A DNA stretch of 64,000 nucleotides, taken from IMG/VR virus record IMGVR_UViG_3300048592_000244, positions 42,114-106,113 of that record. One strand, 5' to 3'. Below, one piece after another: positions 2 through 63,949 of this stretch. Position 1 is the first letter of the stretch, and every line of letters starts with the position of its first letter. The translations under genes and the position numbers were made by a program. The notes under the pieces were generated by a model, which made no database searches, had not been told where the DNA came from, and was given only the letters and a program-made list of their open reading frames with translations. This stretch comes from a virus.

Positions 2-115
2 GAACGATATAGCGCCAGCGTGAATTTCCGCAAGGCGCAGCACGAGTTGAAGGACGAGATCGACAAGAACGTGACGTTGAACGAGAGCGTGTTCATCAAG
101 CCGCAGAAGGCGTAG
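2..115 (+). CDS. 3' end of an upstream gene truncated by the window edge (...ERYSASVNFRKAQHELKDEIDKNVTLNESVFIKPQKA*)
   Basis: Open frame from base 2 to TAG at 113-115, 3 nt before the next ATG. Confidence 0.6.
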   Translation, partial: ERYSASVNFRKAQHELKDEIDKNVTLNESVFIKPQKA

Positions 116-118
116 TAC

Positions 119-577
119 ATGGCCATGACGCCACAGGAGAGGAAGGAAGCTGCGCGGATCGAAGATGATCTGCGCAGTATGGCGTTGAGGATCAACGAGA
201 CCAAGCAGAAGATCGACGTAGCAGAGCAGGAAATTCGTGACTTGCAGAAGGCGATGAAGCCGAAGCAGGTGGCAGTACGACGCAGGCGGTTACAGGTGCT
301 GTACGAGCGCCTGTCTGAAAAGAGCGTTACGAAGGCATCGACATCAGCGGCTCTTTCGGCAGCAGGCATGTCGAGTGTGGCATCAGAAATTGACGCGCTT
401 GAGCGAGAGGTAGAATTGCTTGAGCGCATGAACACTAAGGAAATTCCCGGCAAGGTGCAGACCAAGCGAGCGCAGATACGTCTGGAAAAGCAGGTGCTGG
501 AGCGGCTCTACTCGAAGATCAGGGAAAAGAGCAAACGCCTAGACCGGATCAAGCTGAAATTAGGAACAGAGGACTAA
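119..577 (+). CDS. Hypothetical coiled-coil protein
   Basis: 152 aa, K/R/E-rich heptads, tightly packed with its neighbours. Confidence 0.7.
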   Translation: MAMTPQERKEAARIEDDLRSMALRINETKQKIDVAEQEIRDLQKAMKPKQVAVRRRRLQVLYERLSEKSVTKASTSAALSAAGMSSVASEIDALEREVELLERMNTKEIPGKVQTKRAQIRLEKQVLERLYSKIREKSKRLDRIKLKLGTED

Positions 578-579
578 CC

Positions 580-1014
580 ATGAGCGCAGCATCTGAACTA
601 CGCGACGTACAGCGCAAACGCAGCGGGCTCAAGAAGCTGATCGCCGGGCACGTCCGTCTGGATAACCAAGGTCAGGCTGCTGAACTGGAGAAGGAATTCA
701 ACAAGCTCACCAATAAGATGCGTGAGCTTGAGCAGCAACTGCTTGAGGAGGAGCGCGAGGCAAAGGAGACAGCAGCACGCGTTGCCAAGGAAGCGGAAAA
801 GAAAAAGAAGGACAAGAAGGCAGCCAACAATGAGTACGAGCGCCTGATGTCCAACGTCAAGGATGTCGAGGGCGCACTGTCTGACGTCCGCAAGGCCCTC
901 TCCCGTGAGAAGGACGACAAGAAGAAGTCCAAGCTCTATCAGGAAGAAGGCAAGCTCAAGAAGCTGTGGTCCCGGCTGGTCATGGAGGCCAAGCACGCGA
1001 GGGACGGGAAATAA
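580..1014 (+). CDS. Hypothetical basic coiled-coil protein
   Basis: 144 aa, very K/E-rich; AGAGGA upstream. Confidence 0.7.
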   Translation: MSAASELRDVQRKRSGLKKLIAGHVRLDNQGQAAELEKEFNKLTNKMRELEQQLLEEEREAKETAARVAKEAEKKKKDKKAANNEYERLMSNVKDVEGALSDVRKALSREKDDKKKSKLYQEEGKLKKLWSRLVMEAKHARDGK

Positions 1015-1086
1015 TTCCTCGACACCTTTCAGCCTAAAGCTACCATCTCCGTGTTGCCCTGACGGCTCAGGGGGAAATTACCGGAG

Positions 1087-1410
1087 ATGAAGATGAAACG
1101 CACCACACTGTTCCTGCTCCTCGTGTTCACAGCCTGCCTCGCGGTGGGCTGCTCGAACATTCAGGTCCAGCAGGACGTTGCCGAGCAGAACGAAGTCAAC
1201 GTCAACCAAGCGGCGGAAGACGTCGTGACGATGGCCGACCTGCTCGACCGCGCTGCCAAGGGCGACGAAACTTGGAAGGAGGAATGGGACGATCCGAACA
1301 CGACCGACCCGGACCTCAAGGGAGCTATTCGCGGCTCCATCACGGCGAACATCGCTGGATGGAAAAAGACCGCGAAGGAAATTGTGGAGATCGCCAAACT
1401 CAGTGAGTAG
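1087..1410 (+). CDS. Predicted lipoprotein
   Basis: Basic N-terminus, hydrophobic stretch and lipobox-like LAVG-C. Confidence 0.7.
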   Translation: MKMKRTTLFLLLVFTACLAVGCSNIQVQQDVAEQNEVNVNQAAEDVVTMADLLDRAAKGDETWKEEWDDPNTTDPDLKGAIRGSITANIAGWKKTAKEIVEIAKLSE

Positions 1411-1448
1411 CTGAGTAGCGACCACAGCGATTCTGAGGGAGAACCCAG

Positions 1449-2459
1449 ATGCCAGAGGACACGCCCAATGCAGAACAGCCAGAAGTCGCCGGAGCAGGAG
1501 GTGCGGGAGACGGTGAAGGAAGTCCGCCGCATCCAACAGAGCAGCCTGCCGGAGAGCAGCCTGCGCCTGACGCCGGAACAGGAAGCCCTGATTCGGGAGC
1601 AGATGGAGCAACCGACTCCGCAGCACCAGCCGGGGAGAGTGAACCCGGAGGCGTTGCCGGAGGAGGAACAGGAGGCGAGAGCCAGCCTGAACCGACGCCA
1701 GCGGAAGGCAGCGGACAAGAAGTTCCTGAAATCGCGGGGAGTGAAGAAACCCCGACTGCGGAAACTCCTGCGCCGGAATCCGCCCCGGTAGTTCCGCCGC
1801 CTCCACCGGCGACACCGCCCGTAGCAGCAGTGCCGACCGTGCCGATGGCGTCTGACGATCCGCGTAAGATGACCATGTTGGGTGCCGGACCCACGACACC
1901 TGATACACCACCGACCGAGGCACCATCCGACCCTACCACGCCGCCATCGTCCGACGTGCAGCCAGCGGTGGGGCTGCCTACCGAGAACGAGAGCGACGAG
2001 AGCGATTCCGATGGTTTGAGTGACGAGGAAAAAAGCATCGGAGAAGAACTCACCGAACTCGGTGGCGAGGCGCTGGACAAGGCGAAGGAAATTGGGCGTG
2101 CCACGCTCAAGTCCGCGCTGAACGAGTCACGCGATTTCATCAAGACCGTGCTGAACAACAAGGACATGACCGAGGCGGAGAAGCACGAAGTCGCCCGGCT
2201 GTATCGCGCTGCCGAGAAGCACGCCCTGATGGGCAAGGTGGCCACAGCACACGCGATGGGCAAGCGTCTCGACAACTTCGTCAAGAGCAGCAGCAAGGTG
2301 CTCAAGAGCCAGAAGGCGCGGGCCTCACAGAATTATCTGACGGGCCTGCTCAAGCTCGCAACCGGCGCTGTGAGCACGTTCTTCGGTGCATTCGGCACCC
2401 CGCTGGTGGACAAGCTCACCGATATTGGCTTGAAAGCCACGGACGAGTTTTTACAGTAA
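1449..2459 (+). CDS. Hypothetical protein with disordered Pro/Ala/Glu-rich N-half and helical, amphipathic C-half
   Basis: 336 aa; GGGAGA RBS; followed by a terminator hairpin. Confidence 0.7.
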   Translation: MPEDTPNAEQPEVAGAGGAGDGEGSPPHPTEQPAGEQPAPDAGTGSPDSGADGATDSAAPAGESEPGGVAGGGTGGESQPEPTPAEGSGQEVPEIAGSEETPTAETPAPESAPVVPPPPPATPPVAAVPTVPMASDDPRKMTMLGAGPTTPDTPPTEAPSDPTTPPSSDVQPAVGLPTENESDESDSDGLSDEEKSIGEELTELGGEALDKAKEIGRATLKSALNESRDFIKTVLNNKDMTEAEKHEVARLYRAAEKHALMGKVATAHAMGKRLDNFVKSSSKVLKSQKARASQNYLTGLLKLATGAVSTFFGAFGTPLVDKLTDIGLKATDEFLQ

Positions 2460-2507
2460 GGGCACGGACAGGAAAGTGATGGGTTCGCTCCCTGCTTCCT
2501 CATGGCT

Positions 2508-2537
2508 AAGGACGGCTGCTCTCGGGCAGCCGTCTTT
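2508..2537 (+). terminator. Probable intrinsic terminator
   Basis: AAGGACGGCTGC-TCTCGG-GCAGCCGTCTTT stem-loop. Confidence 0.55.
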
Positions 2538-2563
2538 GCGTAGATAAGCCAAGGAGGCTTTAC

Positions 2564-2818
2564 ATGGACAAGCTCATCGAATTGGTTCCTGAGCGCCTGC
2601 GCTCACGCAAGCTGGCACTGACGTCGGTGCTGATGTACGTGCTCTCGCAACTACAGTCGTTCGGCATCGAGATTCCTGCGGAGACGCAGGCGTACTTGAT
2701 CGCCGGTGCCGGTGGGCTCTACGTCACCGTGCAGGGTGTGCAGGACACGATTGAGAAGGCCATCAAGGCGTGGAAGGGCACGCCGACCGAGCCAATCGTA
2801 GATACACCGGAAGGGTAG
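2564..2818 (+). CDS. Small membrane protein, holin-like
   Basis: 84 aa; RSRK followed by two hydrophobic segments ending YVTVQGVQD; strong AAGGAGG RBS. Confidence 0.5.
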   Translation: MDKLIELVPERLRSRKLALTSVLMYVLSQLQSFGIEIPAETQAYLIAGAGGLYVTVQGVQDTIEKAIKAWKGTPTEPIVDTPEG

Positions 2819-2847
2819 CCACGGCACTGCACTTCCAATCTCCTGAT

Positions 2848-2886
2848 GACCCCGTTGGGAGTCGGTCCCCAGCGGGGTCTTCTTCT
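2848..2886 (+). terminator. Probable intrinsic terminator
   Basis: GACCCCGTTGGG...CCCAGCGGGGTC stem followed by TTCTTCT. Confidence 0.55.
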
Positions 2887-2899
2887 GTCTAGGGAGCAG

Positions 2900-3436
2900 A
2901 TGATGAAACGACTGGCACTGTTGCTCCTGCTGTTCCTCGCGGGATGCACGATACCTCTTTACGAGTCAAGAGACCGCGTGGGCATTGACTTGTGGGGCTC
3001 GCCCACCGTCACTGAGGACAGCTACGAATTCCAGATGAAATTCGACTCGCCTACTGATGATCCTTACCTCATCCAGTGGATCGACGTAGGTCCGTACCAC
3101 GGGGTGGAAGCATTCCGTGTGGTCGAGCCCTACAAGAGTCAGGTGGACACGCACTCAGTCAGCGAGACCAATTTCCAGCACAGGCGCATCACCATCGCGC
3201 CGGGTGACATCGAAGGCGCTGATGAGACCTTCTGGGGGTTCTCCATGCTGCCCTCGCAGTGGCCTGACAACTTCAACGCGACCTACCGAGCCAACCACAA
3301 CATTCAGGGCAGGGTCGTCTACCGCAAGCCTGAGCATGAGACTGTCTACTACCTGCACTTCGAGAACGGCGTCCTGACGTGGTGGATAGAAGGCCACGAG
3401 GATGAAAAGCGGGAGTGGCGGGCAGAGGGAAAGTAG
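2900..3436 (+). CDS. Predicted lipoprotein (start moved to ATG 2900)
   Basis: MMKRLALLLLLFLAG-C lipobox; AGGGAG RBS just upstream. Confidence 0.75.
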   Translation: MMKRLALLLLLFLAGCTIPLYESRDRVGIDLWGSPTVTEDSYEFQMKFDSPTDDPYLIQWIDVGPYHGVEAFRVVEPYKSQVDTHSVSETNFQHRRITIAPGDIEGADETFWGFSMLPSQWPDNFNATYRANHNIQGRVVYRKPEHETVYYLHFENGVLTWWIEGHEDEKREWRAEGK

Positions 3437-3450
3437 GCTAATCTTTCCGC

Positions 3451-4770
3451 ATGGCACGCACGACAAGCACATCATTCAGCATCAACGACGCAGGCACGTT
3501 CTTTGCCAACAAGTCGCTGCTGCTCGATCTCCAGAAGTTCCAGCAGGAGGTTGAGGAAGACCCCAACAAGTACAACCGGGGCGTACTGCTTGGATTCCAG
3601 ACACAGTTCGACATCTATGGCACCGGGGAGTTCGACCGGATGTACGCGGCGATGGTGCAGCGGGACTTCGGTGACACGCTGGACGGCAGGCAGGAAAGAA
3701 TGCTGGCAGCCATGCTGGACCGCCATAAGGGCCTCTGGACGCAGGCGATCACGAAAGCCTTTTCTGTGGCCGCCAACAGCGTAGAAGGCAGGACACAGTT
3801 CGGTCAGCCGACCATCCTCCAGCGCATTGTCAATTTCTTCACTCAAGAAGACCGACAGCAATCATCGCTGGGCTTCTTCGTGGATGAGCATGATCGTGTG
3901 TTCAGCACACGGAAGCTGGCTACTGCCGCAGCCGAGGAAACGACGATCACGGTGAAAATGTCCGCACTGGATTGGGTGCTCGACGCCAAGGTGATGATAA
4001 TTGAGGTGCCGGGCGAGCCGGACAAGTACGTCACTCCGCGTCAGTTGATTCGGCTGGTGGACACAGGCCAGTACCCAGAGAACGACGTGCAGAATCACGT
4101 GAACAGAACTGCACGCGCCAACTTGAATTTCCCCATTATCATCAGCAAGTGGGGGACTGTAGACGCGACTGTTGTGGATGGAATTCACCGCATACTCAAA
4201 GCCCACCTTCTCGGACGGCGTACCATCAAGGCGCAGGTCTTGCGCGGGGGCGTACCGGAGTCTGCTACAGCAGTGCGATTCAAGATACCCACCGAGGCAC
4301 AGATGAAGCCGCAGCTACTCGGTGTTGCTCGCGCAGCCACACAGGGGAGCAGTAAACGTATCTTCAAACAGCGGTTGGCACCCTTCGTCCAGATGCTTTA
4401 CAAGACGATGGGCATGAATTTCCGCAGGGACTTCGAGATCATGGTGGCCCGGTTTGCTGTCAGCCAGAAGGGCGGCGAACAGCTATTCCTCATCAACAGC
4501 CACGTCTCGCAGGTTAGCAGCAAGACATGCAGATTATGCGCAGGGAGGGTTTTCACCCGTGAATCTCTACGCTATGCTGCGCAGGAGTTGTCACCGAATC
4601 TTTTCCACCCGAACTGTGTTCACTACGTCGTCAGGTCTTTTCAGGAAACGACCGAGACCTACGACGGCAAGCAGGGCGCGGTTGTCACGATGCAGGAGAT
4701 CGGCAGGTGGATTTCATCCGGCAGGACGAAGAAGGCAAAGCGTCAGGCCCCGGTAAGCATAAACGTCTAA
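3451..4770 (+). CDS. Phage Mu gpF/SPP1 gp7-like minor head protein with an internal ParB/Srx-like domain
   Basis: C-terminal TCRLC...FHPNCVH motif typical of MuF; internal PIII...VVDGIHRILKAHLLGRRTIKAQV is a ParB-N signature; lies upstream of scaffold and capsid. Confidence 0.7.
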   Translation: MARTTSTSFSINDAGTFFANKSLLLDLQKFQQEVEEDPNKYNRGVLLGFQTQFDIYGTGEFDRMYAAMVQRDFGDTLDGRQERMLAAMLDRHKGLWTQAITKAFSVAANSVEGRTQFGQPTILQRIVNFFTQEDRQQSSLGFFVDEHDRVFSTRKLATAAAEETTITVKMSALDWVLDAKVMIIEVPGEPDKYVTPRQLIRLVDTGQYPENDVQNHVNRTARANLNFPIIISKWGTVDATVVDGIHRILKAHLLGRRTIKAQVLRGGVPESATAVRFKIPTEAQMKPQLLGVARAATQGSSKRIFKQRLAPFVQMLYKTMGMNFRRDFEIMVARFAVSQKGGEQLFLINSHVSQVSSKTCRLCAGRVFTRESLRYAAQELSPNLFHPNCVHYVVRSFQETTETYDGKQGAVVTMQEIGRWISSGRTKKAKRQAPVSINV

Positions 4771-4782
4771 GGAGATTGGATC

Positions 4783-5940
4783 ATGGCAGGAGCAGCGCAA
4801 CAGCCGCAAGGCCAGCCGGTGGCGACCGACCCCACCAAGGCACAGGACGGCCAGATTTTCAAAGGTGGTGATGTCAAGGGCGAGGGCTACGACGACTTCG
4901 ACAAAGCCCGCGAGGGCATGAACCAGAAGCTGCGTCAGAAGCAGGAAGCAGACGCCGCTGCTGAACAGGCCAAGATCGCGGAGGGCCAGACAAAGGCCAA
5001 GATCGAGGGCAAGGCCGCAGCCATCGTCGAAGGCATCGACATCAACGCCATCGCTGATGAGGTGGATGCTGATTTCAAGATGGCGGAAAAGATTCGCGCC
5101 TTCCGCAAGCTGTCGCCGGAAAATGAGCAGAAGCTCGCGGCCATTTCCAAAAGTGTCCAGCAGCGCCGACAGGAGCGCATTGACAAGTTGCTCAACGACC
5201 CTGATATGAACAGCGATCTTGACAATGCGCTGGACGCCGCTGGTGCCCAACCGCCGACGCAGCCGCAGAAGCCTGCTGGTCAGCAGGAGCCTGCCGGGCA
5301 ACAGGCACCGGCAGAAGGTACGCCACAGGCACAGCCCGGCCAGCAGCCCCCGGTACAGCAGCCCGATCAGCAACTGGACATCAACCAGTTGTTGGACAGC
5401 AAGTTGGCCGGTGTGCGCAAGGAACTGGAAGACAAGATCAAGAAGACGAACAACGAGCTTGAGCAGGAGCGCATCCGCCGCCAAGAAGCTGAAAACAAGA
5501 TGAAGGAAATGAAGCAGGCGGAAGAAAATCGTGTCCAGCAGGAAGTACGCACGAATTTCAACAGCAATGCTGGCAAGCTGGGTATCCCCGAAGACCTGCT
5601 TGACGTAGCCTTTGGCAAGGCACGCGACATTGTGAACGCCAACCAGCGCCAGATGTCGTGGGACGACATTTTCGCTGCCATGAAGACGCAATTCCCGTCG
5701 CTTTTTCGCGGCAAGCAGGCCACGGCCCCAGCCGAGGGCGGTGGAAACGCTGGCGCAGACGCTGGCGAGGCGGCGAAGAAAGTCACTGTGAAGGCCGGAA
5801 CCGGCACCGGCGCAGGTGGAGCAGGCCCCAAAAATCCGCCCCCGGCAGCAGGCGGAAAGAAGGAGCATGATTCCTTCGACGAAGCCAAGAAAGCCCTGAG
5901 CAAGCGGGCGGAGCAGATGGCAGCAGGTGGTGGGGGATAA
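4783..5940 (+). CDS. Probable capsid scaffolding protein
   Basis: Coiled-coil and Q/P-rich linker, directly upstream of the major capsid gene. Confidence 0.65.
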   Translation: MAGAAQQPQGQPVATDPTKAQDGQIFKGGDVKGEGYDDFDKAREGMNQKLRQKQEADAAAEQAKIAEGQTKAKIEGKAAAIVEGIDINAIADEVDADFKMAEKIRAFRKLSPENEQKLAAISKSVQQRRQERIDKLLNDPDMNSDLDNALDAAGAQPPTQPQKPAGQQEPAGQQAPAEGTPQAQPGQQPPVQQPDQQLDINQLLDSKLAGVRKELEDKIKKTNNELEQERIRRQEAENKMKEMKQAEENRVQQEVRTNFNSNAGKLGIPEDLLDVAFGKARDIVNANQRQMSWDDIFAAMKTQFPSLFRGKQATAPAEGGGNAGADAGEAAKKVTVKAGTGTGAGGAGPKNPPPAAGGKKEHDSFDEAKKALSKRAEQMAAGGGG

Positions 5941-5968
5941 TTTCGGCCTGACACCCATCGAATAAATT

Positions 5969-6015
5969 CCAGCGGTATTTCTCCCACAGGGGTTGAAATA
6001 CCGCTGGTTTCTTTT
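5969..6015 (+). terminator. 13-bp hairpin with U-rich tail between scaffold and capsid genes
   Basis: CCAGCGGTATTTC (5969-5981) / GAAATACCGCTGG (5995-6007) then TTTCTTTT. Confidence 0.55.
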
Positions 6016-6083
6016 CCATGCTCAGGGGGCACCGCAGTAACCCCGCTCTGTGCGGGAAATTGTTTTCGGACTAGGAGTAACAC

Positions 6084-7085
6084 ATGCCCGGCGTAGCAGG
6101 CTTCAATTTCGCTGACGCCGCCGTCATGGTGAAAGAGGAGTTCGAGTCCACGTTCTACCGGACTTTCGTCCGCAACAACGTGTTCATGGAACTGCTCAAC
6201 CCCACTCGTGAGGAGTACGTCGAAAAGGACATCCGCTGGAAGCTCTACTACAGCGGAAACCCTGCGGCGGGCTCGTACAGCGAGGACGGCGACATTGGCA
6301 TCAACCGCACCGACCTTGGTGAGCGTTTCACCACGGCCCAGCTTGACTGGAAGCTGAACGGTGTGCCGATCAAAGTGAGCGGTCTGGCGCAGGCCATCAC
6401 CCAGAGCCCCAAGGCGATCATCGACGCCGTGGGGGAAAACACCGAGCAGGCCCTCAAGCAGTTGCAGGCGAACATGAACCTGCAACTCCTGAGCGACGGC
6501 GCTGGCAACCTGAACGGCGTCAACCCGGCCCTCAACGCCGGTCTTGACATCACCGGAATTCAGGCGGCCATCGACGACGGTGGTGACGTAGCGATCTACG
6601 GTGGCATCGACCGCACCGTGGACGTCTACTGGCAGAGCTTCGTGCTCCGCAATCCACTGGCCCCCGGCACCCCGCGCCCGCTGACCGAAGCACTGATGCA
6701 CCAAGTGATGAACGAGCTTCGTCAGGTGCGTCAGGGCCGCGTCACGCACATCCTGTGCAGCCCGAACGTCTTCACGCAGTACGGTCTCCTGCTTCAAGGC
6801 GACCGTCGCTACCCGCTTACGGGCGGTGGCGCGAACCGCTATGTCGGCGGTTTCGAGGCGTTGAAGTTCGACGACGTTGCACTGGTGAGCGTTCCTCTCT
6901 ACGAGGAAGGCCGCATGGACTTCGTGGACATGGACCTGTTGAAGTACAAGATTCTCTTGGACTTCACCATTTCCCCGCGTGACGCAGGCATCCGCGATGC
7001 CAACGTCATGCACGCGAAGACCTACAGCCAGTTCCAGTGCAAGAACAGCTTCGTCATGGGAAGCATCCGCGACCTGATCGTCTAG
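6084..7085 (+). CDS. Major capsid protein (HK97-fold, inferred)
   Basis: 333 aa; YGGIDRT...YWQS and GGFEALKFDD motifs of phage MCPs; position after scaffold; strongly biased codons; terminator follows. Confidence 0.8.
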   Translation: MPGVAGFNFADAAVMVKEEFESTFYRTFVRNNVFMELLNPTREEYVEKDIRWKLYYSGNPAAGSYSEDGDIGINRTDLGERFTTAQLDWKLNGVPIKVSGLAQAITQSPKAIIDAVGENTEQALKQLQANMNLQLLSDGAGNLNGVNPALNAGLDITGIQAAIDDGGDVAIYGGIDRTVDVYWQSFVLRNPLAPGTPRPLTEALMHQVMNELRQVRQGRVTHILCSPNVFTQYGLLLQGDRRYPLTGGGANRYVGGFEALKFDDVALVSVPLYEEGRMDFVDMDLLKYKILLDFTISPRDAGIRDANVMHAKTYSQFQCKNSFVMGSIRDLIV

Positions 7086-7116
7086 TAGAGCAGGCGGTCT
7101 GACAAGCTAGGAAAAG

Positions 7117-7150
7117 AGGGCCGTCCTTCGGGGCGGCCCTTGCATTATTT
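7117..7150 (+). terminator. Intrinsic terminator after the capsid gene
   Basis: AGGGCCGTCC-TTCG-GGGCGGCCCT then T-rich tract. Confidence 0.75.
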
Positions 7151-7204
7151 ATGATGCAAACCACAATGAGGGCCTTGGTTTGAATTTCTCACAGGAGATG
7201 GAAA

Positions 7205-8425
7205 ATGTCAGGACCGACGTCTGGACTCCCTGCTGGTTATCCTGCACCGCCCGCTGCGCCGACAGGGCTGGTTCCGCAGGGACAAGCAGGACCGTATCAG
7301 TACGGGAGAAATCGTGGCCAGAACCGGCCCGACATGAACCCGCTCAACAGCCGACCGGCGATGCTGGTGAAAAACAGCGCCCGCAAACGCCTAAACGAGT
7401 ACCTTCGGGACCAAGGGCTCCAGCCCTTCGCAGAGCACGAGGAAATTCCCGGCCTGTTTATCCTGATCGAACTCATGCACATGACCGTGGAGCCACTGCG
7501 CACAGACGCCAACCGCGCCTTCCGCGACATGCCCGTCAAGCTGTCCACCAGCCAGACTGTCCGCACAGTCTGGCGTCGTCTTCCCTACGAGGCCGTGCCC
7601 TACGAGGCCCGCACATTCCCGCTGCACGTCGCCCGGATGATGCTCCAGCAGATCGAGAATTACAGCTACACGATCTACCCGGAACTCGTTCAGCAGGGCA
7701 ACTTGCAGGTCTGGCAGGCGCGTCCACTGATGCAGGGTGAAGGCGTGCAGATCGCGCCGGTGCGCTGGCGTGCGCCGACCCAGCAGGAATTGAACGCCAT
7801 GAACGCGATGGCGAATCGCCTCAGCCAGTCAGACGGCATTGCCAGTCGTCGTCCGGGCGGAGGTGGTGGCCTGATGGTGTCGCTCAACCCTGAGAAGGAC
7901 AGACGGGTGATGGACGCCACGCAGACAGCAGAGGCGAAGGGAAATCCCGATGTCCACACATTCCAGCAGCCACAGGCACCGCAAGGAGCCCCGGCACCGA
8001 CGCCGGAATATCCGCAGCCGCAGTCAGCACCACCGTCCGCTCCACCGGCGTCGAGCCAGCAGTACGCCCAGACACCACAGGGACAGCAGGTGCAGCAGGG
8101 CCTGCCTCCGCAGCCAGCGCCGCAGATGCAGGTTGACCCGCAGGCGTCACCGCAGCAGGCAGGGCAGAGCACCAGCATGAAGTCCGATCTGCATGAGCCT
8201 GTGAACGCGACCAACGAGATACCTGAGACAGTCCGCCGCAACACCGCTGCCAGCAATGAAGCGACAGCGGAGGAAAATCAGGAAGCTCTGGCGGCGGGCC
8301 ACCGGGAAATCCCCGAGGATGCACCGCCACCGGCGACCAGCAAGGCGCACGTTCCACCGCCGCCAACGACACAGGCGCAAAACCCCGGCAACGTACCACC
8401 TCCGCCTCCGCCACCGACTCGCTAG
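7205..8425 (+). CDS. Hypothetical protein with Pro/Gln-rich C-half
   Basis: 406 aa; AGGAG RBS. Confidence 0.7.
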   Translation: MSGPTSGLPAGYPAPPAAPTGLVPQGQAGPYQYGRNRGQNRPDMNPLNSRPAMLVKNSARKRLNEYLRDQGLQPFAEHEEIPGLFILIELMHMTVEPLRTDANRAFRDMPVKLSTSQTVRTVWRRLPYEAVPYEARTFPLHVARMMLQQIENYSYTIYPELVQQGNLQVWQARPLMQGEGVQIAPVRWRAPTQQELNAMNAMANRLSQSDGIASRRPGGGGGLMVSLNPEKDRRVMDATQTAEAKGNPDVHTFQQPQAPQGAPAPTPEYPQPQSAPPSAPPASSQQYAQTPQGQQVQQGLPPQPAPQMQVDPQASPQQAGQSTSMKSDLHEPVNATNEIPETVRRNTAASNEATAEENQEALAAGHREIPEDAPPPATSKAHVPPPPTTQAQNPGNVPPPPPPPTR

Positions 8426-8432
8426 AAAAGAC

Positions 8433-8464: not shown

Positions 8465-8477
8465 GTAGGATGCACGC

Positions 8478-55747: not shown

Positions 55748-55749
55748 CT

Positions 55750-55962: not shown

Positions 55963-55964
55963 CC

Positions 55965-56291: not shown

Positions 56292-56293
56292 CC

Positions 56294-56710: not shown

Positions 56711-56957
56711 CGATGGAGATGGCGTGGACCTGTCATTTCGAGTACGTCTTGCTGAACGATGGCAAAGCTATCGCTGGTGGGGATGCCGAAGCAATGGCCG
56801 CTGTGGTGAATGCGTTCGGCATTACGGACAACAATTTCCGTCTACTCAAGTGGTATGAATGGATGGAATGGCAGGTGGAAGAACTCCGCCACCAGCAGAA
56901 AAAGGAAAACGAAGAACTCATGCGGGAAATTGGCCACGATGACGAGGAGTAGCCATG
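56671..56957 (+). repeat. Imperfect direct repeat of about 40 bp flanking ORF 56713-56952
   Basis: CATGATGGAAATTGGCGAGCACGATGACGAGGAGGAGTAGCGATG (56671-56715) vs CATGCGGGAAATTGGCCACGATGACGAGGAGTAGCCATG (56919-56957). Confidence 0.8.
56713..56952 (+). CDS. Early hypothetical protein
   Basis: 79 aa; coupled junction. Confidence 0.7.
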   Translation: MEMAWTCHFEYVLLNDGKAIAGGDAEAMAAVVNAFGITDNNFRLLKWYEWMEWQVEELRHQQKKENEELMREIGHDDEE

Positions 56958-57173
56958 TCGCAGTTCTACATCGACCCGGACTACTCTACGGAGACGTCAT
57001 TGCCAAACGCTGAGACGTTCTTCGTCGGCCCGCGTGAAATTCTGGGCGTGAGAACCGGATGGTATTGGTGGGCGTGCTTCCCCGGCTGCCTACCTGATGG
57101 TGAAGCCAGCGGTCCGTTCCGTACTGAGGCCGGGGCAATCAAGGACGCAAGGAGCCTGAACCATGTCTGGTAG
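56955..57173 (+). CDS. Early hypothetical protein
   Basis: GWYWWACFPGCLPDGEASGPF motif. Confidence 0.7.
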   Translation: MSQFYIDPDYSTETSLPNAETFFVGPREILGVRTGWYWWACFPGCLPDGEASGPFRTEAGAIKDARSLNHVW

Positions 57174-57438
57174 AATCGGACCCAACCAGCAGTGCGACTG
57201 CGGCTCCGGCAAGAAATTCAAGAAGTGCTGCGGTGCCCGTGGTCGCATCACCGACCCGGTGCAGGCAGAGCAGCAGGCCCACAACGAAGAACGCTGGCGG
57301 GAACAGCGCAAGAAACCCAAGAGCAAGGACGCTGCGTTGATACCGTTCCTTTTCGCCGGGATGCTGGGCGCGGACTTGTCTGGCCCCGGCCCTGCTCCAC
57401 CGAAACCCAAGCGACGTAACCGGAGGAAACCGCAATGA
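57163..57438 (+). CDS. SEC-C motif protein
   Basis: IGPNQQCDCGSGKKFKKCCG matches the SecA C-terminal metal-binding motif. Confidence 0.8.
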   Translation: MSGRIGPNQQCDCGSGKKFKKCCGARGRITDPVQAEQQAHNEERWREQRKKPKSKDAALIPFLFAGMLGADLSGPGPAPPKPKRRNRRKPQ

Positions 57439-57635
57439 AGACCAAGCACCTGTTCAACAGCAATCGTGGTGACGCTGAGATCGAACTCAGCATCACCAAT
57501 TACTGCGTCCAGATGGACGTGACGAAAATGAACGCGGCCAACGAGCCGCAGGCCATCATGTCGCCGCAGGCTGCGCGGATATTCGCTGCCAACCTCAACG
57601 CCTACGCCGACGAGATCGACCGGAGGACAGCATGA
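57435..57635 (+). CDS. Early hypothetical protein
   Basis: GGAGG RBS; ATGA coupling. Confidence 0.65.
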   Translation: MKTKHLFNSNRGDAEIELSITNYCVQMDVTKMNAANEPQAIMSPQAARIFAANLNAYADEIDRRTA

Positions 57636-57832
57636 ATGCGGTCTTCTGCTTCGCTCTAAAGCACACACCCGGTAGCAGGCTACGGTCAGCAATAGTCTTC
57701 GCTCGTTGGGGTGTTGACGACGTTGTGCTGCTGTCGCTGGAAGCTAAATGGAAAAACGCCAAGGGCGGCTACACAGTCCCGGTGGCGTGCATCGAGGAGG
57801 CAGCAAGATATGTCGAACGAGACGGGAAGTGA
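57632..57832 (+). CDS. Early hypothetical protein
   Basis: GGAGG RBS; ATGA coupling. Confidence 0.6.
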   Translation: MNAVFCFALKHTPGSRLRSAIVFARWGVDDVVLLSLEAKWKNAKGGYTVPVACIEEAARYVERDGK

Positions 57833-58070
57833 ACCTACTCGTGAACGTGCGGAGCGTCTTGTCCAACTGGATATGGGCAACACGCCGTGGGCAACGCCAA
57901 AGCAGTACCTCGAACTGCTGGATGTAATCAAGGACTTGAGTCTGTGCCTTGACGAGCACGGCCAGCACCAAGGCACGCATTACATCCGCGATGGCAAGAT
58001 TGAGCCCAAGGGCAGCTTCATTGCTTTGGTTCACAAGGCGCAGGAAATTACGGAGAGAACCGATGGGTGA
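57810..58070 (+). CDS. Early hypothetical protein (MSNETGSE...)
   Basis: GAGGAGG RBS before ATG 57810. Confidence 0.6.
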   Translation: MSNETGSEPTRERAERLVQLDMGNTPWATPKQYLELLDVIKDLSLCLDEHGQHQGTHYIRDGKIEPKGSFIALVHKAQEITERTDG

Positions 58071-58464
58071 ATTACGCAACCGCCTTGAGAGGCGAGGAAA
58101 AGTCTGGCGTCCCGAGGGCTACCCCAGCATCACCGGACATCAGTTGGGCATCCTGCTCAAGATGTGGTTCCACTCCAAGGGGCGAGTCGATTGTCCAGTG
58201 GCCGGTGAGCCCTGCTGGTGGCAGTCGGCACGGTCCTTGACACGTAAAGAGGTGATCCGTCAGGTCGATTACAAACTGAAACACCCGAAGTGGCCGTGGC
58301 AGCGTGGCAAGCCGGACGCTGACTACAGAGGCACTGGCTACGCTTTGACTCCGATGGGCTGGCATCTATGCAAGCGCATCGTCACAGCATTTCCGCGAGA
58401 AGCTGCTGAGGCCGAAGCTGAGGCAGCGGCGTATTTCCGCATGTTCAAAGGAGAAGCAGCATGA
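58063..58464 (+). CDS. Early hypothetical basic protein (possible winged helix)
   Basis: GGAG RBS; YALTPMG wing-like motif. Confidence 0.6.
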   Translation: MGELRNRLERRGKVWRPEGYPSITGHQLGILLKMWFHSKGRVDCPVAGEPCWWQSARSLTRKEVIRQVDYKLKHPKWPWQRGKPDADYRGTGYALTPMGWHLCKRIVTAFPREAAEAEAEAAAYFRMFKGEAA

Positions 58465-59174
58465 GCAAGCGCAGGAGAAGGGACTGGCCGTGGCCGTCTG
58501 GCATGACATTCGACCAGATCATTGACGGGCTCGGTGCCAGCAACGTCGCAGACCGCTCGACGAACTACAACTTCGGCGAGAACTACGACATGGACGGCAT
58601 GGGCCATGATGGAAAATGGTCGAATGTCTTTCCGGTGTTTGATGACGTAGCCGGGGCGAAGAATTTCTTCACGTCCAATGGTTACGACGTGCCGCTGGAA
58701 AAACCGGCCCATGAGTACGACGAGGACGAGTATCTCGAATTCCTGAACGAGAGCATCAGGGAAATCTGTCAGGAGAACGACTACTACTCGCCGATGATGA
58801 ACTACTACTACGAGATAGACCTGCGCAGTGAAGACGCTGAGGCCATGCAGGCACGCATCGACCGCTATGGCGGTTGCTGCATCCTCGTGATGCTTGGCGA
58901 CGAGCCCAAGCTCTGTCTGGCCGGTGGCGGCATGAACCTGACGTGGGACATCGTGTGGTCGTACATCCTCTGTGGCCAGTTGCCGCCGACGAAGTATTGC
59001 GAACTACCTGAGTTCGCTGGACACTCCCTCAGCAGGAAAAACCGCCTCATCATCAAGGCGTGCAGGAAATCCCTCAAAGTCCATCAGCGGTGGCTAGATG
59101 GCACCCGCCGCAATCTGGAATGTGCCGTCACTAACATCTACAACGCGAGGAAAAAGAAACATGCGAATGCGTGA
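58461..59174 (+). CDS. Early hypothetical protein
   Basis: 237 aa; LAGGGMNLTWDIVWSYILCGQLPP motif. Confidence 0.75.
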   Translation: MSKRRRRDWPWPSGMTFDQIIDGLGASNVADRSTNYNFGENYDMDGMGHDGKWSNVFPVFDDVAGAKNFFTSNGYDVPLEKPAHEYDEDEYLEFLNESIREICQENDYYSPMMNYYYEIDLRSEDAEAMQARIDRYGGCCILVMLGDEPKLCLAGGGMNLTWDIVWSYILCGQLPPTKYCELPEFAGHSLSRKNRLIIKACRKSLKVHQRWLDGTRRNLECAVTNIYNARKKKHANA

Positions 59175-59328
59175 TTTCATCAAGGACAACCGGGAGGAGT
59201 TGAAGCGGCTTATCCGCGACTACCTCAAGCAGCCCGATTTTCCGCTGAACACTGCCGATCTCGAACAATGGATCGCCAACGATGAGGGCCTCTATAATTG
59301 GGCTCGAAGCGAAGGCGTCAGCGTCTAA
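59161..59328 (+). CDS. Small early protein
   Basis: WIANDEGLYNWARSEGV motif; start 59161 or 59167. Confidence 0.65.
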   Translation: MRMRDFIKDNREELKRLIRDYLKQPDFPLNTADLEQWIANDEGLYNWARSEGVSV

Positions 59329-59337
59329 GGAGACAAC

Positions 59338-59574
59338 TTGAACAGAGGTGAACAGAAGACGTTTGTCCGCGAACTGGCGGATGCCTTGGTGCGTGAAGTC
59401 TGTGAGAAAATCGACGAGGGGAAAATCCCTGAGCATTGGGACGGGCACGAACTGCGTGTCCTGATGTCGGAGAAATTCGAGCAGTCAGCCAAGGCATCCG
59501 TGATCCGCACGAGTCCACGACATAGCCGGGCTCGTGATTACCACAACACCGTACTGACCAAGTACCTTACATAA
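59338..59574 (+). CDS. Early hypothetical protein
   Basis: AAGGAG RBS with TTG start; IPEHWDGHELR motif. Confidence 0.65.
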   Translation: MNRGEQKTFVRELADALVREVCEKIDEGKIPEHWDGHELRVLMSEKFEQSAKASVIRTSPRHSRARDYHNTVLTKYLT

Positions 59575-59585
59575 GGAGACGCGCC

Positions 59586-60308
59586 GTGGAGTACACTGAC
59601 CAGCAGCAGATTGAGAAGACGTTCAAGTTCTTCGACATGGCCGCCATCGGCAGGATGATGTCGCACAGCAACGACATGGAGAATCTCGTTGAGTGTGACG
59701 ACGCGGAAATTATCGAGGATGAGGAAGGCATCCGTCTGGTATTTTCCTTCTCCCGTATGGCGATGGACGGCAATGGCTACCACGTCGGCACCGAGACTTG
59801 CGTGGTGACGTTCGAGACCTTCGACGCCAGCAAGATGATGTACGTCCATCCGAACAAGCTGGAGGACTACCCACTCCACGGCACCGGCGTCACGCTGGAC
59901 TTGCGTGAAGCGAACTTCGACATGGCACCCGCTCGTGAGGAAATCCCGTGGGAGGAAATCTACCGCGAGAATGCCGACCCGGAGCATCAGCAACTGCTGG
60001 ATGAGTACAAAGCCTCGCTCTACACACCGGCGTTTGTCAATCAAGACGACCCGGACCCCATCGACGAGGAAGACTTCTGTGCGTGGATGCAGGAGGAGCA
60101 CGACATCGACGTAGACCGCGAGGCTTACTTCGACGCCTACAACCCACCGGACGACGACTTCTGGTTCCAAGAGGTTGAGTACAAGTTCGACAAGCTCAAG
60201 GATCACCTGCGTTCGCTGGTGTGGAAATTCAACCCTGACCATGAGAAGGAGGAGAGCGAGCCGTGGTATCTCGAAACAAAGTCCGAATCATCGTCATTGA
60301 CCCCGTGA
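59586..60308 (+). CDS. Highly acidic early protein
   Basis: 240 aa, D/E-rich; AAGGAG RBS with GTG start. Confidence 0.75.
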   Translation: MEYTDQQQIEKTFKFFDMAAIGRMMSHSNDMENLVECDDAEIIEDEEGIRLVFSFSRMAMDGNGYHVGTETCVVTFETFDASKMMYVHPNKLEDYPLHGTGVTLDLREANFDMAPAREEIPWEEIYRENADPEHQQLLDEYKASLYTPAFVNQDDPDPIDEEDFCAWMQEEHDIDVDREAYFDAYNPPDDDFWFQEVEYKFDKLKDHLRSLVWKFNPDHEKEESEPWYLETKSESSSLTP

Positions 60309-60634
60309 ACAAGGCGGTGCGGGAGCACTACGTCAACCCGCAGAATTTCCGCGACTACCATGCTCTGCTCGATACCGTCACGTTGGAGTCGTTCGTCCGC
60401 ACTCCGGTTGACTTCGACGAGGCGGCGTTCTTTTACATCGACGAGCTTGGTGGGTTCACCAACAAGCCCCGTTTCATTGTCAAAGCCAAGCACGGGAACG
60501 AGTTCGTCATCGGCCCGGCAGCTTTGATTGGAGAGCCCACAAGGGAAGGAGACGAGACCGACTGTCCGTGGGCGGTAGAAGACGTGCTGAAATTCATTGC
60601 CTTTGAACCCGTTGCACAAGGATTCTTCCAATGA
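60263..60634 (+). CDS. Early hypothetical protein (DUF3846-like)
   Basis: IIVIDP...YIDELG...IGPAALIG...EGDETD pattern. Confidence 0.6.
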   Translation: MVSRNKVRIIVIDPVNKAVREHYVNPQNFRDYHALLDTVTLESFVRTPVDFDEAAFFYIDELGGFTNKPRFIVKAKHGNEFVIGPAALIGEPTREGDETDCPWAVEDVLKFIAFEPVAQGFFQ

Positions 60635-61806
60635 CAGAAACGACCGAACTGACCATCTACAAAGCGGGAACACCCGAAGCCAAGAAGTGCATGACGCGGC
60701 ACTGCGTGCTGTACGGCAGCAGCGGCCAGCCGATGGCGTCTGTGTACTTCGTGTTCCCGCGTTTCCTGACGTTCGAGCACGAGCACTTCATCAAGAAGAA
60801 GGTCGATGAGGACGACCTCAAGGAGATGGAGAAACTCGTCAAGGAACTTGCGCCGGTCATCATGTCGAAGGTCGCCGACAAAATCCACGCGGTGCTGGAG
60901 CCGTGGGATGAATTCCTCAACGATCTGGATGACGAGGAAATCTGCGCCGTCTTCAACGAGGCCCTTGAGCGTGACGTGGAAGAAAACCCACGCGGTGAAT
61001 TCATCGGCCATCCTGTCGGCACCTCGATCTTCAAGGCGCTCCAGAAGCTGGACGACAAGTACGGCGGCCACGTCTGCGGGCCGTACTACACCTACAACGA
61101 CCCGGACAGCTACTGCGGCCAGCACGACATCCAGTTCACCTTCCCCTCGAAGTCAGGAGACCCGTGGACGCCGACGATGTTCGACGTCGTGTTCCTCCAG
61201 ATTCACCCCGGTGGTGATGCTCGCAACATGGCGGAGGGCAGGTTCTACGTGCCGGAAGGTATCGACGAGACGACGAACCTGTACGACACGCTGGGCGCAA
61301 ACATCGGTGATCTCGGCACGCTGGTGGAAATCCCTGTCGAATTTCCGCTGGAGCAGTGGCTGCGCCAGAACGATCAGGATGCGTGGGATTCCATCTACCG
61401 CGAGGAAAAGCCTGACGCCGAAGGCCGCTACTATAAGAGTGAGCTACTGGATTGGTTCCAAGACTTCAAGGACGGCATGTGCCGCATCTACCTGACGCCG
61501 GAGGGCGACAACGGTGCTGGCGTGGATGTCTACCGAGTGTACGACGCTATCCAGTACAAGGGCCGCGACCTTTGGACGTGGGTGCCGGAGGGTGAGATCG
61601 TCGGAGAGAAACGGTCACAGGTCGGAATTTCTGCCACGCCGTACATCCCTGCGGTGTTCGAGTATTCCACTGGCGGGTACTTCAAGTGGGATGGCCCAAT
61701 GCCCGGCACCGATGAGTGGGAAGCGATGATGACGGAAAATGCGATGCACCCCATCTCGCCGCGCAAGGAAAAGGACGAAACCAAGGACGCCTTCAAGGAG
61801 GAGTAG
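60631..61806 (+). CDS. Acidic early hypothetical protein
   Basis: 391 aa; YTYNDPD...LQIHPGGDAR motif. Confidence 0.75.
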   Translation: MTETTELTIYKAGTPEAKKCMTRHCVLYGSSGQPMASVYFVFPRFLTFEHEHFIKKKVDEDDLKEMEKLVKELAPVIMSKVADKIHAVLEPWDEFLNDLDDEEICAVFNEALERDVEENPRGEFIGHPVGTSIFKALQKLDDKYGGHVCGPYYTYNDPDSYCGQHDIQFTFPSKSGDPWTPTMFDVVFLQIHPGGDARNMAEGRFYVPEGIDETTNLYDTLGANIGDLGTLVEIPVEFPLEQWLRQNDQDAWDSIYREEKPDAEGRYYKSELLDWFQDFKDGMCRIYLTPEGDNGAGVDVYRVYDAIQYKGRDLWTWVPEGEIVGEKRSQVGISATPYIPAVFEYSTGGYFKWDGPMPGTDEWEAMMTENAMHPISPRKEKDETKDAFKEE

Positions 61807-61808
61807 TC

Positions 61809-62165
61809 ATGCGGAAATTCAAGCCGTGCCAGTTCGTCACGCCGAAGGAAGCCACAGACGCTGACCGGCGTCTGGTTTACTACGCTCGCTACTACTTCGA
61901 TGGCACCTACGTCGAGTTCTACCGTGGCAAGCGCATCAGGATGGAGCCGGGCATGGTGGGTATCGTGCGGTCGATTGCCCCGAGCGTGATGACATCGGCA
62001 CCGCATGTGGAATTTCTCGTCATTGACTTCTGCCATCCGATCACCGGCAAAGTGGAGCGGGCGGCGTTGCATCACAGTGAAGTGGAGGAAGCGGAGCCTC
62101 CTGAGTATGAAATCCCCCGCAACGGCTGGAAAAGTCCAGAGGCAGCATTCACCTACGTTCGCTAA
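61809..62165 (+). CDS. Early hypothetical protein (MRKFKP...)
   Basis: GGAGGAG RBS before ATG 61809. Confidence 0.7.
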   Translation: MRKFKPCQFVTPKEATDADRRLVYYARYYFDGTYVEFYRGKRIRMEPGMVGIVRSIAPSVMTSAPHVEFLVIDFCHPITGKVERAALHHSEVEEAEPPEYEIPRNGWKSPEAAFTYVR

Positions 62166-62175
62166 GGAGTAAGCC

Positions 62176-63183
62176 ATGACTGAGAGAACTAAAATCCATG
62201 AGAAGTTTCTTGAGTACCCAGAGCTTGTTGAGGCACGAGAGCGTGCGGAGAACGCCATCATCGCGTTCGACAAGCTCGGCGCTACCCGCTGCACCAACCG
62301 CAGCTACGGCCCGTGGCATCTGTGCGTCAACGTCAAGGTCCGCGAGTACCCGCTGAACTGTGCGCCGGAAATTCGTGAGAGCATGTCCGAGCGGTGGTAC
62401 GACTATCAGCAGGACGACTTCTGGAACCTTGACTTCGACGGCGACTGCATCGTCCGTGAGGAGTGCCCGCTGCCATTCCCGAAGTTTTTCAGTGACGGTC
62501 GCAGCGGTGGCTACTTCGTCTTTGACGGCAACGATTCCAAGCGAGCCGCTCCTGCGCTGAACGCCTACAACCAGCAGGCCAGCAATTACGGCGGTAGCGG
62601 GCAGACACCAAGGCCGGAAGGCAACATCGACATTGCACTCTCTCAGTTCGATGACGTGGTGGACCCGTTCAAGTGGATCACCGAGGTCAGGGACTTCGAG
62701 GGCGATGAGGAAAAAGAGAAGGCGTGGGTGCAGGAGGACGTGGACGGTGTGACCGCCGCGTATGCCGAGATGGCCGAGGTGTTCGAGGCAGCGACGGAGT
62801 GGGCGCAGTCCGTGCTGGACATCAAGAAGTACCGATTGAGCGTCTTCACCGGCAAGGAATATGAGGCGCTGAACTCTCTGGCCGATCAAGAGCAGTATGA
62901 CTTCTTCGACTTCGAGCACTGCACGATTGTGACTGACGGTGACGAGACCACGGTGTCGTGGCCGCAGCACGCTCGTCAGTTTCAGGACTGCGGAAAATGG
63001 GAGACCTGCGAGAAGGACGACGAAGGTGCTCGTGAATGGCACGACGGCACGTTCAAGAAGTTCATTCCTGACGAGCCCAAGGTGTTCAGCTTCACGATGC
63101 CGCGAGACTCTCTGATCGAGCAACTCAATGAGGAACTGCACGACGCCGTAGCAGCCATACGGAAGCGTGCTCTGAAATCATAG
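62176..63183 (+). CDS. Acidic early hypothetical protein
   Basis: 335 aa; GRSGGY motif; AAGGAG RBS. Confidence 0.75.
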   Translation: MTERTKIHEKFLEYPELVEARERAENAIIAFDKLGATRCTNRSYGPWHLCVNVKVREYPLNCAPEIRESMSERWYDYQQDDFWNLDFDGDCIVREECPLPFPKFFSDGRSGGYFVFDGNDSKRAAPALNAYNQQASNYGGSGQTPRPEGNIDIALSQFDDVVDPFKWITEVRDFEGDEEKEKAWVQEDVDGVTAAYAEMAEVFEAATEWAQSVLDIKKYRLSVFTGKEYEALNSLADQEQYDFFDFEHCTIVTDGDETTVSWPQHARQFQDCGKWETCEKDDEGAREWHDGTFKKFIPDEPKVFSFTMPRDSLIEQLNEELHDAVAAIRKRALKS

Positions 63184-63192
63184 GGAGGGAAA

Positions 63193-63573
63193 ATGCAGAC
63201 GACGCTGACAGACGAACAGATCGAGGCCGCGATTGAGGACGCCTGTTCGGAGTACGAGACTGCCAAGGATGACGCTCTCAAGCAGGTCGATGACGAAGAC
63301 CTGTGCCGCTTCCGTGGGATGCAGGTAGTCATGGGCGACAACGAGCGCGGGTGTCGTCTGGGCGACCCGATAGATTACCCTCCTGACCCACCGGACACCC
63401 TGACGGTCGAGCAAGTGCGCAAGTGGATCGAAGAAGCCATCAAGGAAGGCGCGGACGATCTCGTCCTGCAAGGCGGATTCGACACTGCGGGGGACGCCGA
63501 TGACTTCGACAACGGAAATTACAACCCCGAGGCTTCGTTCTTTGAAGTCACTCTCTGGGAAAGGAAGGAATAG
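63193..63573 (+). CDS. Very acidic small early protein
   Basis: 126 aa, D/E-rich; GGGAGG RBS. Confidence 0.75.
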   Translation: MQTTLTDEQIEAAIEDACSEYETAKDDALKQVDDEDLCRFRGMQVVMGDNERGCRLGDPIDYPPDPPDTLTVEQVRKWIEEAIKEGADDLVLQGGFDTAGDADDFDNGNYNPEASFFEVTLWERKE

Positions 63574-63577
63574 CGTC

Positions 63578-63949
63578 ATGTTGACCAACAAGCAGAAGAA
63601 GACCTTGCTGGAAATTGGAAGCAAGGTGGTGTGCCGAATCCCCACGTCATCGAAGCATTGGGACGCAGGCTGCTACCTTGTACCGGATGGCGAGCAGATC
63701 AACGGGCACGCAGTGGGCTGGCTGATCCGCAAGGGCTGGCTGGAAATGACCAAGTGCCCGGAGAAGAAGCCCCCTCCACACGCCATGTACTACAAACGCA
63801 CCAAGCTGAAATTCAGCGAGGGCTACGACAACAACAAGGGCTTTACCTGCTGGTGTGGTCATCACACAGGCCCGAGCATGTACCGGCGCACGCTGTCGGA
63901 GCCGCGAAGAAAACAGGCGTGTTCAGGTCCGGCAATACGGACCCGGTGA
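63578..63949 (+). CDS. Early hypothetical basic protein (MLTNKQ...)
   Basis: AAGGA RBS before ATG 63578. Confidence 0.6.
   Translation: MLTNKQKKTLLEIGSKVVCRIPTSSKHWDAGCYLVPDGEQINGHAVGWLIRKGWLEMTKCPEKKPPPHAMYYKRTKLKFSEGYDNNKGFTCWCGHHTGPSMYRRTLSEPRRKQACSGPAIRTR

Follow-up and report, generated by a model that had tools for sequence, protein, structure and literature searches.

A seven-base word held by selection in the coding sequence of a 106-kb phage genome, and a possible role as dispersed protein docking sites

With reference to the 64,000-nucleotide stretch of viral DNA studied here, which covers bases 42114-106113 of the single-contig virus record IMGVR_UViG_3300048592_000244 (106,113 bp, 57.7% GC) and is hereafter called the window, it can be observed that the phage carries a short asymmetric word, (G>T)GAAA(T>A)T, in extraordinary numbers, and that this word is maintained by selection in the phage lineage by means of A/T-ending codons which are otherwise rare. 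Across the window (1..64000, both strands), 85 copies of GAAATT and 67 of AATTTC were counted, giving 152 cores, four pairs of which overlap as GAAATTTC, against 22.8 hexamers expected on both strands from a first-order Markov (dinucleotide) model; an earlier note on this DNA had arrived by hand at about 145-150 cores, which agrees well with our count. The full seven-base word occurs 137 times in the window, 76 times as GGAAAWT on the plus strand and 61 times as AWTTTCC. The whole genome contains 267 cores at about 13 per 5 kb throughout, including the 42 kb upstream of the window. We tentatively favour, with rather less than even confidence, the explanation that these words are dispersed docking sites for a lineage-specific protein that would bind duplex DNA.

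The gene model built in this study comprises 149 genes covering 94% of the genome, and 245 of the 267 cores were located inside genes, in different frames: GAA-ATT 70, xxG-AAA-TTx 69, AAT-TTC 46, xxA-ATT-TCx 28, xAA-TTT-Cxx 22 and xGA-AAT-Txx 10. The core was tested as GAAATT on the coding strand of genes, where it was observed 149 times, against four nulls, which gave 35.2 ± 5.7 for per-gene synonymous shuffles, 63.6 ± 5.2 for synonymous shuffles that also keep the codon-junction dinucleotide, 22.6 when codon order was shuffled, and 37.2 ± 4.6 for a Monte-Carlo synonymous shuffle forbidding all 78 absent words of up to 6 bp. The claim made earlier that amino-acid content is no explanation is therefore borne out, as the excess survives both the codon-preserving and the junction-dinucleotide-preserving shuffles, and so is the claim that A/T-ending codons are otherwise avoided, with GAG (1414), ATC (1156), AAG (1553) and AAC (949) all outnumbering GAA (1035), ATT (408), AAA (436) and AAT (301). 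The word accounts for about 29% of the AAT and ATT codons and for 25% of the AAA codons, compared with 7-9% in the shuffles. At the level of codon pairs, GAA-ATT was observed 70 times against 16.8 expected, AAT-TTC 46 against 13.6, AAA-TTC 51 against 17.8 and ATT-TCC 41 against 5.3, and Gly-Asn is coded in two states, either as GGC-AAC (58 against 39.7 expected) or as GGA-AAT (20 against 3.1).

Comparatively, 245 of the 651 synonymous opportunities (38%) carry the core, Asn-Phe being the highest with 68%, and occupancy hardly changes between genes common to distant relatives (37%) and orphan genes (38%), or across all four genome regions (31-43%). Within genes, the enrichment is 7.4-fold on the coding strand and 6.5-fold on the template strand, so the earlier description of copies in both orientations, in all modules and in different frames stands. 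Nearly all genes are on the plus strand, with a single minus-strand block at window 36334-46368, where the ratio between the strands reverses together with the coding strand, which means that there is no polarity along the genome. A signal at the mRNA level was ruled out, both strands being enriched alike. The HNH endonuclease and the patatin-like lipase, which are probably late arrivals, use 2 of 14 opportunities against 38% overall, though these numbers are small.

Again, evidence of selection was obtained from two metagenome contigs (L012 and L016) with 85-88% DNA identity to the phage, in which both the enrichment and the purge of restriction-type words described below are present. The conservation check that the earlier note had proposed gave a clear outcome, as 12 of 13 GAAATT/AATTTC sites are kept in these relatives over 6 kb aligned, whereas hexamers in general are retained at 49% and the remaining A/T-rich ones at 59%. 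Third codon positions with A or T agree in 13 of 14 instances within the core, compared with 244 of 445 outside it (p = 0.005). Six sites occur in the relative alone and are absent from the phage, which indicates turnover of sites. The spacing of sites was compared with a null in which occupancy is permuted among potential sites, and no pair was found 6-25 bp apart, where 11.3 ± 2.9 were expected. This exclusion applies to pairs in the same orientation (0 against 6.6, P = 0.0007) as well as in opposite orientation (0 against 4.7, P = 0.006); pairs 26-50 bp apart show a mild deficit (10 against 15.1), and beyond 50 bp there is none. The sites are also spaced more evenly than random, with a coefficient of variation of 0.85 against 0.99 (P = 0.005). 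The total lack of pairs at 6-25 bp argues against mutation or repair bias, since such a bias would be blind to neighbouring sites, and it matches what would be produced by a bound unit with a footprint of about 25 bp on the duplex, because a second site within that footprint would be useless. That the exclusion extends to opposite orientations suggests a footprint on the duplex and not a pair of independent strand-specific signals.

Regarding the anatomy of the word, the excess is confined to A/T runs whose full length is exactly 5 bp (AAATT 197 against 57, AAAAT 108 against 47), whereas runs of 3, 4 and at least 6 bp are depleted, and so are those with TpA steps, and GAATTC is found in 36 copies, as expected. 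The base on the 5' side matters greatly: GGAAATT was observed 143 times against 20 expected, TGAAATT 48 against 11, AGAAATT 35 against 13 and CGAAATT 19 against 13, so that GGAAATT is enriched sevenfold and CGAAATT only 1.5-fold, and GGAAAAT reaches 70 against 14 expected. CAAATT is absent against 22 expected, and AAAATT is found 8 times against 19. The base next to GGAAA is preferentially T or A, with C or G disfavoured, and at the following base T is preferred to A and both to G or C. The 3' flank is uninformative, with GAAATTCC, GAAATTCA and GAAATTCG each enriched 5-6 times. The nine-base GGAAATTCC, which the earlier note regarded as a pseudo-palindrome bound by a dimeric protein, is the word followed by CC, and GGAATTTCC is merely its reverse complement; its 22 genome copies compare with 26.5 predicted from independent flanks. 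Since the 5' flank is informative and the 3' flank is not, the unit is asymmetric and a two-fold-symmetric dimer operator finds no support. The eight-base palindrome GAAATTTC has 8 genome copies and ties with CGACGTCG as the most frequent palindrome of that length. An intrinsic-curvature A-tract array was also considered and rejected, as there is no 10.5-bp spacing peak, 5-bp runs alone are enriched, and the 5' flank is G-specific.

All the positions previously listed for the nine-base form and for GGAAATTTCC were matched exactly. On the plus strand of the window, GGAAATTCC is found at 439..447, at 7441..7449 (genome 49555, conserved in both L012 and L016), at 9060..9068 (genome 51174, conserved in L016), at 11723..11731, 32070..32078 and 34930..34938, and at 53588..53596, where it abuts the ATG of the gene at 53597 and doubles as the ribosome-binding region. 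Minus-strand copies are located at 9718..9726 (read as GGAATTTCC on the plus strand; genome 51833, conserved in L016), at 15629..15637 within the 2791-amino-acid tape-measure gene, at 15875..15883, 19639..19647, 29154..29162, 46613..46621 and 50669..50677, and at 51051..51059 in an intergenic gap. Two overlapping words in opposite orientation form GGAAATTTCC at 44257..44266, with a second such pair at 53890..53899. GGAAATT also abuts the ATG at 13632 (13625..13631, plus strand) and at 33572 (33565..33571, plus strand), and further genes begin with GGAAA-ATG, the word occasionally doubling as a ribosome-binding region. The copies at translation starts described earlier are thus real at 13625, 33565 and 53588, but they are few, because only 18 of the 149 gene starts have GAAAWT within 22 nucleotides upstream. 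A Shine-Dalgarno role for the word was ruled out, the usual element here being AGGAG.

Two distant relatives, the IMG/VR contigs G1 (99 kb) and G2 (77 kb), have capsids 74-76% identical to that of the phage, with most genes at 25-55%. GGAAATT is found 11 times in G1 and 8 times in G2, against 157 in this phage, and no comparably over-represented word was found in either of them. The dipeptides conserved under word sites are written with other codons in G1/G2 in 17 of 18 cases. As these relatives are without the word, it is a trait of the close lineage. An IMG/VR scan with the DNA polymerase returned no useful relatives. Shaping by the word at the amino-acid level is suggestive at best: word-capable dipeptides are about 20-25% commoner than in the orthologous segments of G1 and G2 (178 against 141, 154 against 129), and dipeptide conservation at word sites is 21% against a background of 20%.

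Under the docking-site explanation, each word would be the site for one unit of a predicted DNA-binding protein that reads the duplex and covers about 25 bp, and some 270-400 such sites, about one per 270-400 bp along the genome, would act as nucleation or marking points to organise, compact or identify the phage DNA. The reader may be encoded by the phage itself, which is the weaker part of the proposal, and the best candidate is a protein of 131 amino acids encoded on the plus strand at genome 7358-7753 (L018:7358-7753), 34 kb upstream of the window and two genes upstream of the polymerase. It consists of about 55 residues of KKxAAKK-type, histone-H1-like Lys/Ala repeats followed by a conserved 70-residue Trp/Lys-rich module containing PGSRGRPP, an AT-hook-like core. 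With a third-position GC of 0.83, its gene ranks near the top of the genome, which may reflect strong expression. A search of its C-terminal 75 residues against 5.8 billion proteins recovered 6 homologues, 69-87% identical, on contigs of up to 106.7 kb, in which the PGSRGRPP core is invariant and the repeat tails are variable and sometimes C-terminal. As far as these sequence searches reach, the family is known solely from this lineage; no match was obtained in GTDB genomes or IMG/VR, and it is absent from G1 and G2, which also lack the word. The protein matched no AT-hook or H1 family in Pfam.

It has been described that RGRP AT-hooks bind short AATT-type A-tracts free of TpA steps by inserting into their narrow minor groove, the HMGA1 AT-hook structure having been solved on GGGAAATTCCTC, and that the RGR protein Lsr2 has a preference for G/C-flanked A-tracts of 5-6 bp and disfavours TpA steps, in contrast to H-NS, MvaT and Rok, which favour them (PMC8476142). 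The AAATT and AAAAT runs enriched in this genome are short, TpA-free AnTm tracts with G/C flanks, of the kind expected of an AT-hook target, so that AT-hook preference and the enriched 5-bp tract agree. A more specific proposal, which we regard as conceivable but somewhat unlikely, is that the word is a "self" mark of phage chromatin, whereby the AT-hook/H1-tail protein would dock on about 270-400 GGAAAWT sites with a footprint of about 25 bp, so that the phage would organise, protect or distinguish its 58%-GC DNA from that of the host, codon choice having co-evolved with that protein.

Several observations weigh against these proposals. The predicted structure of the candidate is of low quality (predicted local distance difference test score, pLDDT, 62), and a Foldseek search of the model against the PDB revealed no DNA-binding fold and nothing below E = 2. 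A plain AT-hook reads groove shape and would not explain the two required 5' Gs, which would need to be read by the conserved module around the hook; nor would one expect GAATTC and 6-bp A-tracts to be unenriched with a plain AT-hook. The GAAAAT form of the word is kept at only 3 of 7 sites in the close relatives. Moreover, the association between candidate and word comes from one lineage and is a single evolutionary event, and most phage proteins are without known family, such that other readers are possible. A host factor may also be the reader, and the word might be a host-wide one. Among the readers suggested in the earlier note, the 60-residue helix-turn-helix (HTH) protein at 24386-24568 gave weak HTH matches only, and the MuF-ParB fusion was not located, as L020:6-1484 and window 3451-4770 gave no Pfam domain.

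This genome is also one of the most extreme cases of restriction-site purge. Out of the 64 six-base palindromes, 48 are wholly absent from the 106 kb and 10 more are found in at most 5 copies, with only GACGTC, TGGCCA, GAATTC, TGCGCA, ACGCGT and AAATTT being tolerated. TTAA has 1 copy against about 115 expected. Other words that are absent or nearly so include CCWGG, CAAAT/ATTTG, CTGAAG, GAAGAG, SAGCTS, RGATCY and ACTGGG, as well as several 7-mers, among them CGGWCCG, GCTNAGC and CCTNAGG. The non-palindromic 5-mer CAAAT/ATTTG, one base away from the favoured GAAAT, has no copy against about 81-159 expected; it is likewise absent in the close relatives (L012, L013 and L016) and present in the distant ones (161 in G1, 116 in G2), and its ban means that AAAT is never preceded by C. 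We know of no Type II enzyme with a CAAAT site, and the ban may be tied to the reader of the word or reflect a distinct target of defence. Other depleted non-palindromic words are CCACCC/GGGTGG (2 against 64), GGGGGG/CCCCCC (2 against 32) and AGAAAG/CTTTCT (3 against 40). Purges are also seen in the distant relatives, where the sets of words differ, G1 being without 22 hexamer palindromes and G2 without 12; TTAA is absent only in G1, and CCWGG and GAGCTG only in G2. Restriction pressure on the phage family as a whole seems to be very strong and diverse.

The purge raises the question of whether the word is a by-product without any reader, left over from the removal of restriction words or from a context-dependent mutation or repair bias, and some features do fit: the long list of missing words (48 of 64 hexamer palindromes, TTAA, CCWGG, CAAAT/ATTTG), the CAAAT ban, which forces G over C on the 5' side of AAAT, and the depletion of TpA-containing A/T runs. 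Nevertheless, the purge does not force the word, because shuffles that forbid every absent word still yield only 37 cores against 149, 72% of the occupied sites could be written in preferred codons without creating any absent word, and each occupied site has legal alternatives, with a mean of 14.5 legal out of 19.2. Mutation bias, for its part, would place sites independently of their neighbours, in conflict with the empty interval at 6-25 bp, and would not keep 12 of 13 sites intact in relatives with 86% DNA identity. The by-product explanation is largely refuted and was given the slightest probability of all. It is also very unlikely that the word is a target of DNA modification, by a phage enzyme or a hijacked host methylase or base-modifying enzyme, which would protect or mark the genome. 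Type I, Type III and BREX-type methylases typically act on asymmetric words of 6-7 bp, which this word resembles, and an unrecognised enzyme could be present among the many phage proteins without known family; but no methyltransferase, transglycosylase or glycosyltransferase domain was detected in the 50 proteins scanned, the purge of more than 60 restriction-type words argues against a general protection of the DNA by modification, and neither the enrichment nor the 25-bp exclusion zone is expected of a modification target. A similarly low probability is attached to a single-strand replication signal needed on both strands, such as a site of the phage primase (which would be the Toprim protein beside the DnaB-like helicase, window 49023-50033). 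The phage does encode DnaB-like and Toprim proteins, both orientations would be needed if forks run both ways, and the evenness of spacing agrees with it, but known primase sites are 3-5 nucleotides long and require no enrichment, exclusion between opposite strands is unexpected for strand-specific signals, and there is no Okazaki-length regularity, the gaps beyond 50 bp fitting the null.

A further explanation, which we consider unlikely without dismissing it, is that the signal is read by a host enzyme or protein, either as a Chi-like word taming a helicase-nuclease or as a site of a host nucleoid or AT-hook protein, and was accumulated by the phage. Of the precedents described, this Chi-like use of a host nuclease comes nearest. 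Phages are known to accumulate Chi, with 23 sites in LLS, 50 in P1 and 32 in MD8 (PMC12315714), and as in these phages, the word found here is short and asymmetric (7 bp), lies within genes far above chance, and is unexplained by codon usage. Its restriction to one lineage would be expected if the host differs from those of G1 and G2, whose purges also differ. On the other hand, Zheng et al. 2025 described Chi-rich phages that lack recombination genes and in which the sites, at about 1 per 1.9 kb, strongly favour one orientation (20:3, 32:0) and concentrate towards one end (PMC12315714), whereas this phage possesses its own recombination module with SbcC/SbcD-like, UvsX-like, FEN and helicase genes, and displays equal orientations, a flat density of 1 per 270-400 bp and a 25-bp exclusion. 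The mutual exclusion of oppositely oriented neighbours within 25 bp, which suggests a duplex footprint, and the low usage in the HNH endonuclease and patatin-like lipase (small numbers) also count against a host-read signal. The Chi-like signalling put forward in the earlier note is accordingly a poor fit on account of the unbiased orientation and the recombination genes, and the stoperator-like repression it also mentioned fares no better, with 245 of the 267 cores within genes and in both orientations.

With respect to gene content, the known functions of the phage fall into a siphovirus-type structural module and a replication/recombination module, and the majority of the remaining proteins are without known family. 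The structural module includes an SU10-type major capsid protein (window 6084-7085), a major tail protein (12307-13542) and the tape measure of 2791 amino acids (14756-23131). The replication/recombination module comprises a family A DNA polymerase, a DnaB-like helicase, a Toprim protein, a FEN-type exonuclease, a UvsX-like recombinase, ThyX and SbcC/SbcD-like proteins; the SbcC-like, SbcD-like (Metallophos), FEN-type 5'-3' exonuclease, UvsX-like recombinase and helicase genes are located at window 38373-45794, and the Toprim protein lies beside the DnaB-like helicase. The patatin-like phospholipase (window 35462-36337, plus strand) closes the tail-gene block and carries the word at 1 of 9 opportunities; its nearest family is the CBASS cGAMP-activated phospholipase family (E = 1.7e-13, below the family cut-off), and it may be a recent acquisition. 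A sigma-70/ECF-like protein (window 36334-37188, minus strand), whose match is confined to region 2 (residues about 50-130 of 284), stands at the head of the minus-strand recombination block.

Concerning the source, contigs related to window 1-20000 were found in activated-sludge and bioreactor metagenome runs. A small secreted protein with a He_PIG immunoglobulin domain (L019:16303-16746, genome 36303-36746) ends in a C-terminal tail of Gly-Gly-Cys, a hydrophobic helix and RQRKK, which bears a weak likeness to MYXO-CTERM (E = 0.004, far under the family cut-off) and offers a faint hint of a Myxococcota host. The only match in a phage-collection search was the capsid, 24.5% identical to that of Myxococcus phage Mx9. 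No tRNA genes were found in the phage genome, a host search in genome contigs by capsid alignment and by candidate-reader alignment gave no match, and the protein atlas search gave no usable taxon for a host.

Among known systems, the stoperators of cluster A mycobacteriophages are 13-bp asymmetric repressor sites present in about 24-35 copies per genome, and the word resembles them in being a dispersed, asymmetric and putatively protein-binding sequence repeated many times across a phage genome; they differ in being longer, about ten times fewer, mostly intergenic and oriented with transcription, whereas the 200-400 copies here are genic and in both orientations. The HMGA1 and Lsr2 targets (PMC8476142) likewise involve a 5-bp TpA-free A-tract flanked by G/C, and the phage protein shares with such readers an invariant SRGRPP and basic tails, but AT-hooks recognise groove shape with low sequence specificity, unlike the present case, where two 5' Gs are required and 4-bp and 6-bp A-tracts are unenriched. 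Restriction-site avoidance (Rusinov et al. 2018, PMC6286503) also reshapes genome-wide oligonucleotide content through context-dependent synonymous choice; it removes words, whereas here one is added that the purge does not force. DNA uptake sequences and uptake signal sequences (DUS/USS), HIP1 and KOPS are comparable in being short words at very high copy number inside coding sequence, but they belong to cellular chromosomes and in most cases show a strand or orientation bias, whereas the carrier here is a phage whose distant relatives are without the word. Full-text literature searches for the word returned chance matches only and no described phage system, and to our knowledge no phage system with a GGAAAWT word has been described. 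What is new relative to known over-represented words is the combination of an extreme genic copy number, an orientation-independent 25-bp exclusion zone and a lineage-restricted candidate reader.

In summary, selection on a DNA word has been strong enough in this 106-kb genome to occupy 38% of its synonymous opportunities, and the extreme purge that accompanies it informs on the defence load within activated-sludge communities. The finding offers a concrete starting point in one small candidate protein, one 7-bp word and one predicted 25-bp footprint. If a phage-encoded protein reads the word, a virus would have here a sequence-addressed means of coating or marking its own chromosome, and, if true, this would bear on how phages discriminate their own DNA from that of the host, on the interpretation of phage codon usage and on genome recoding.

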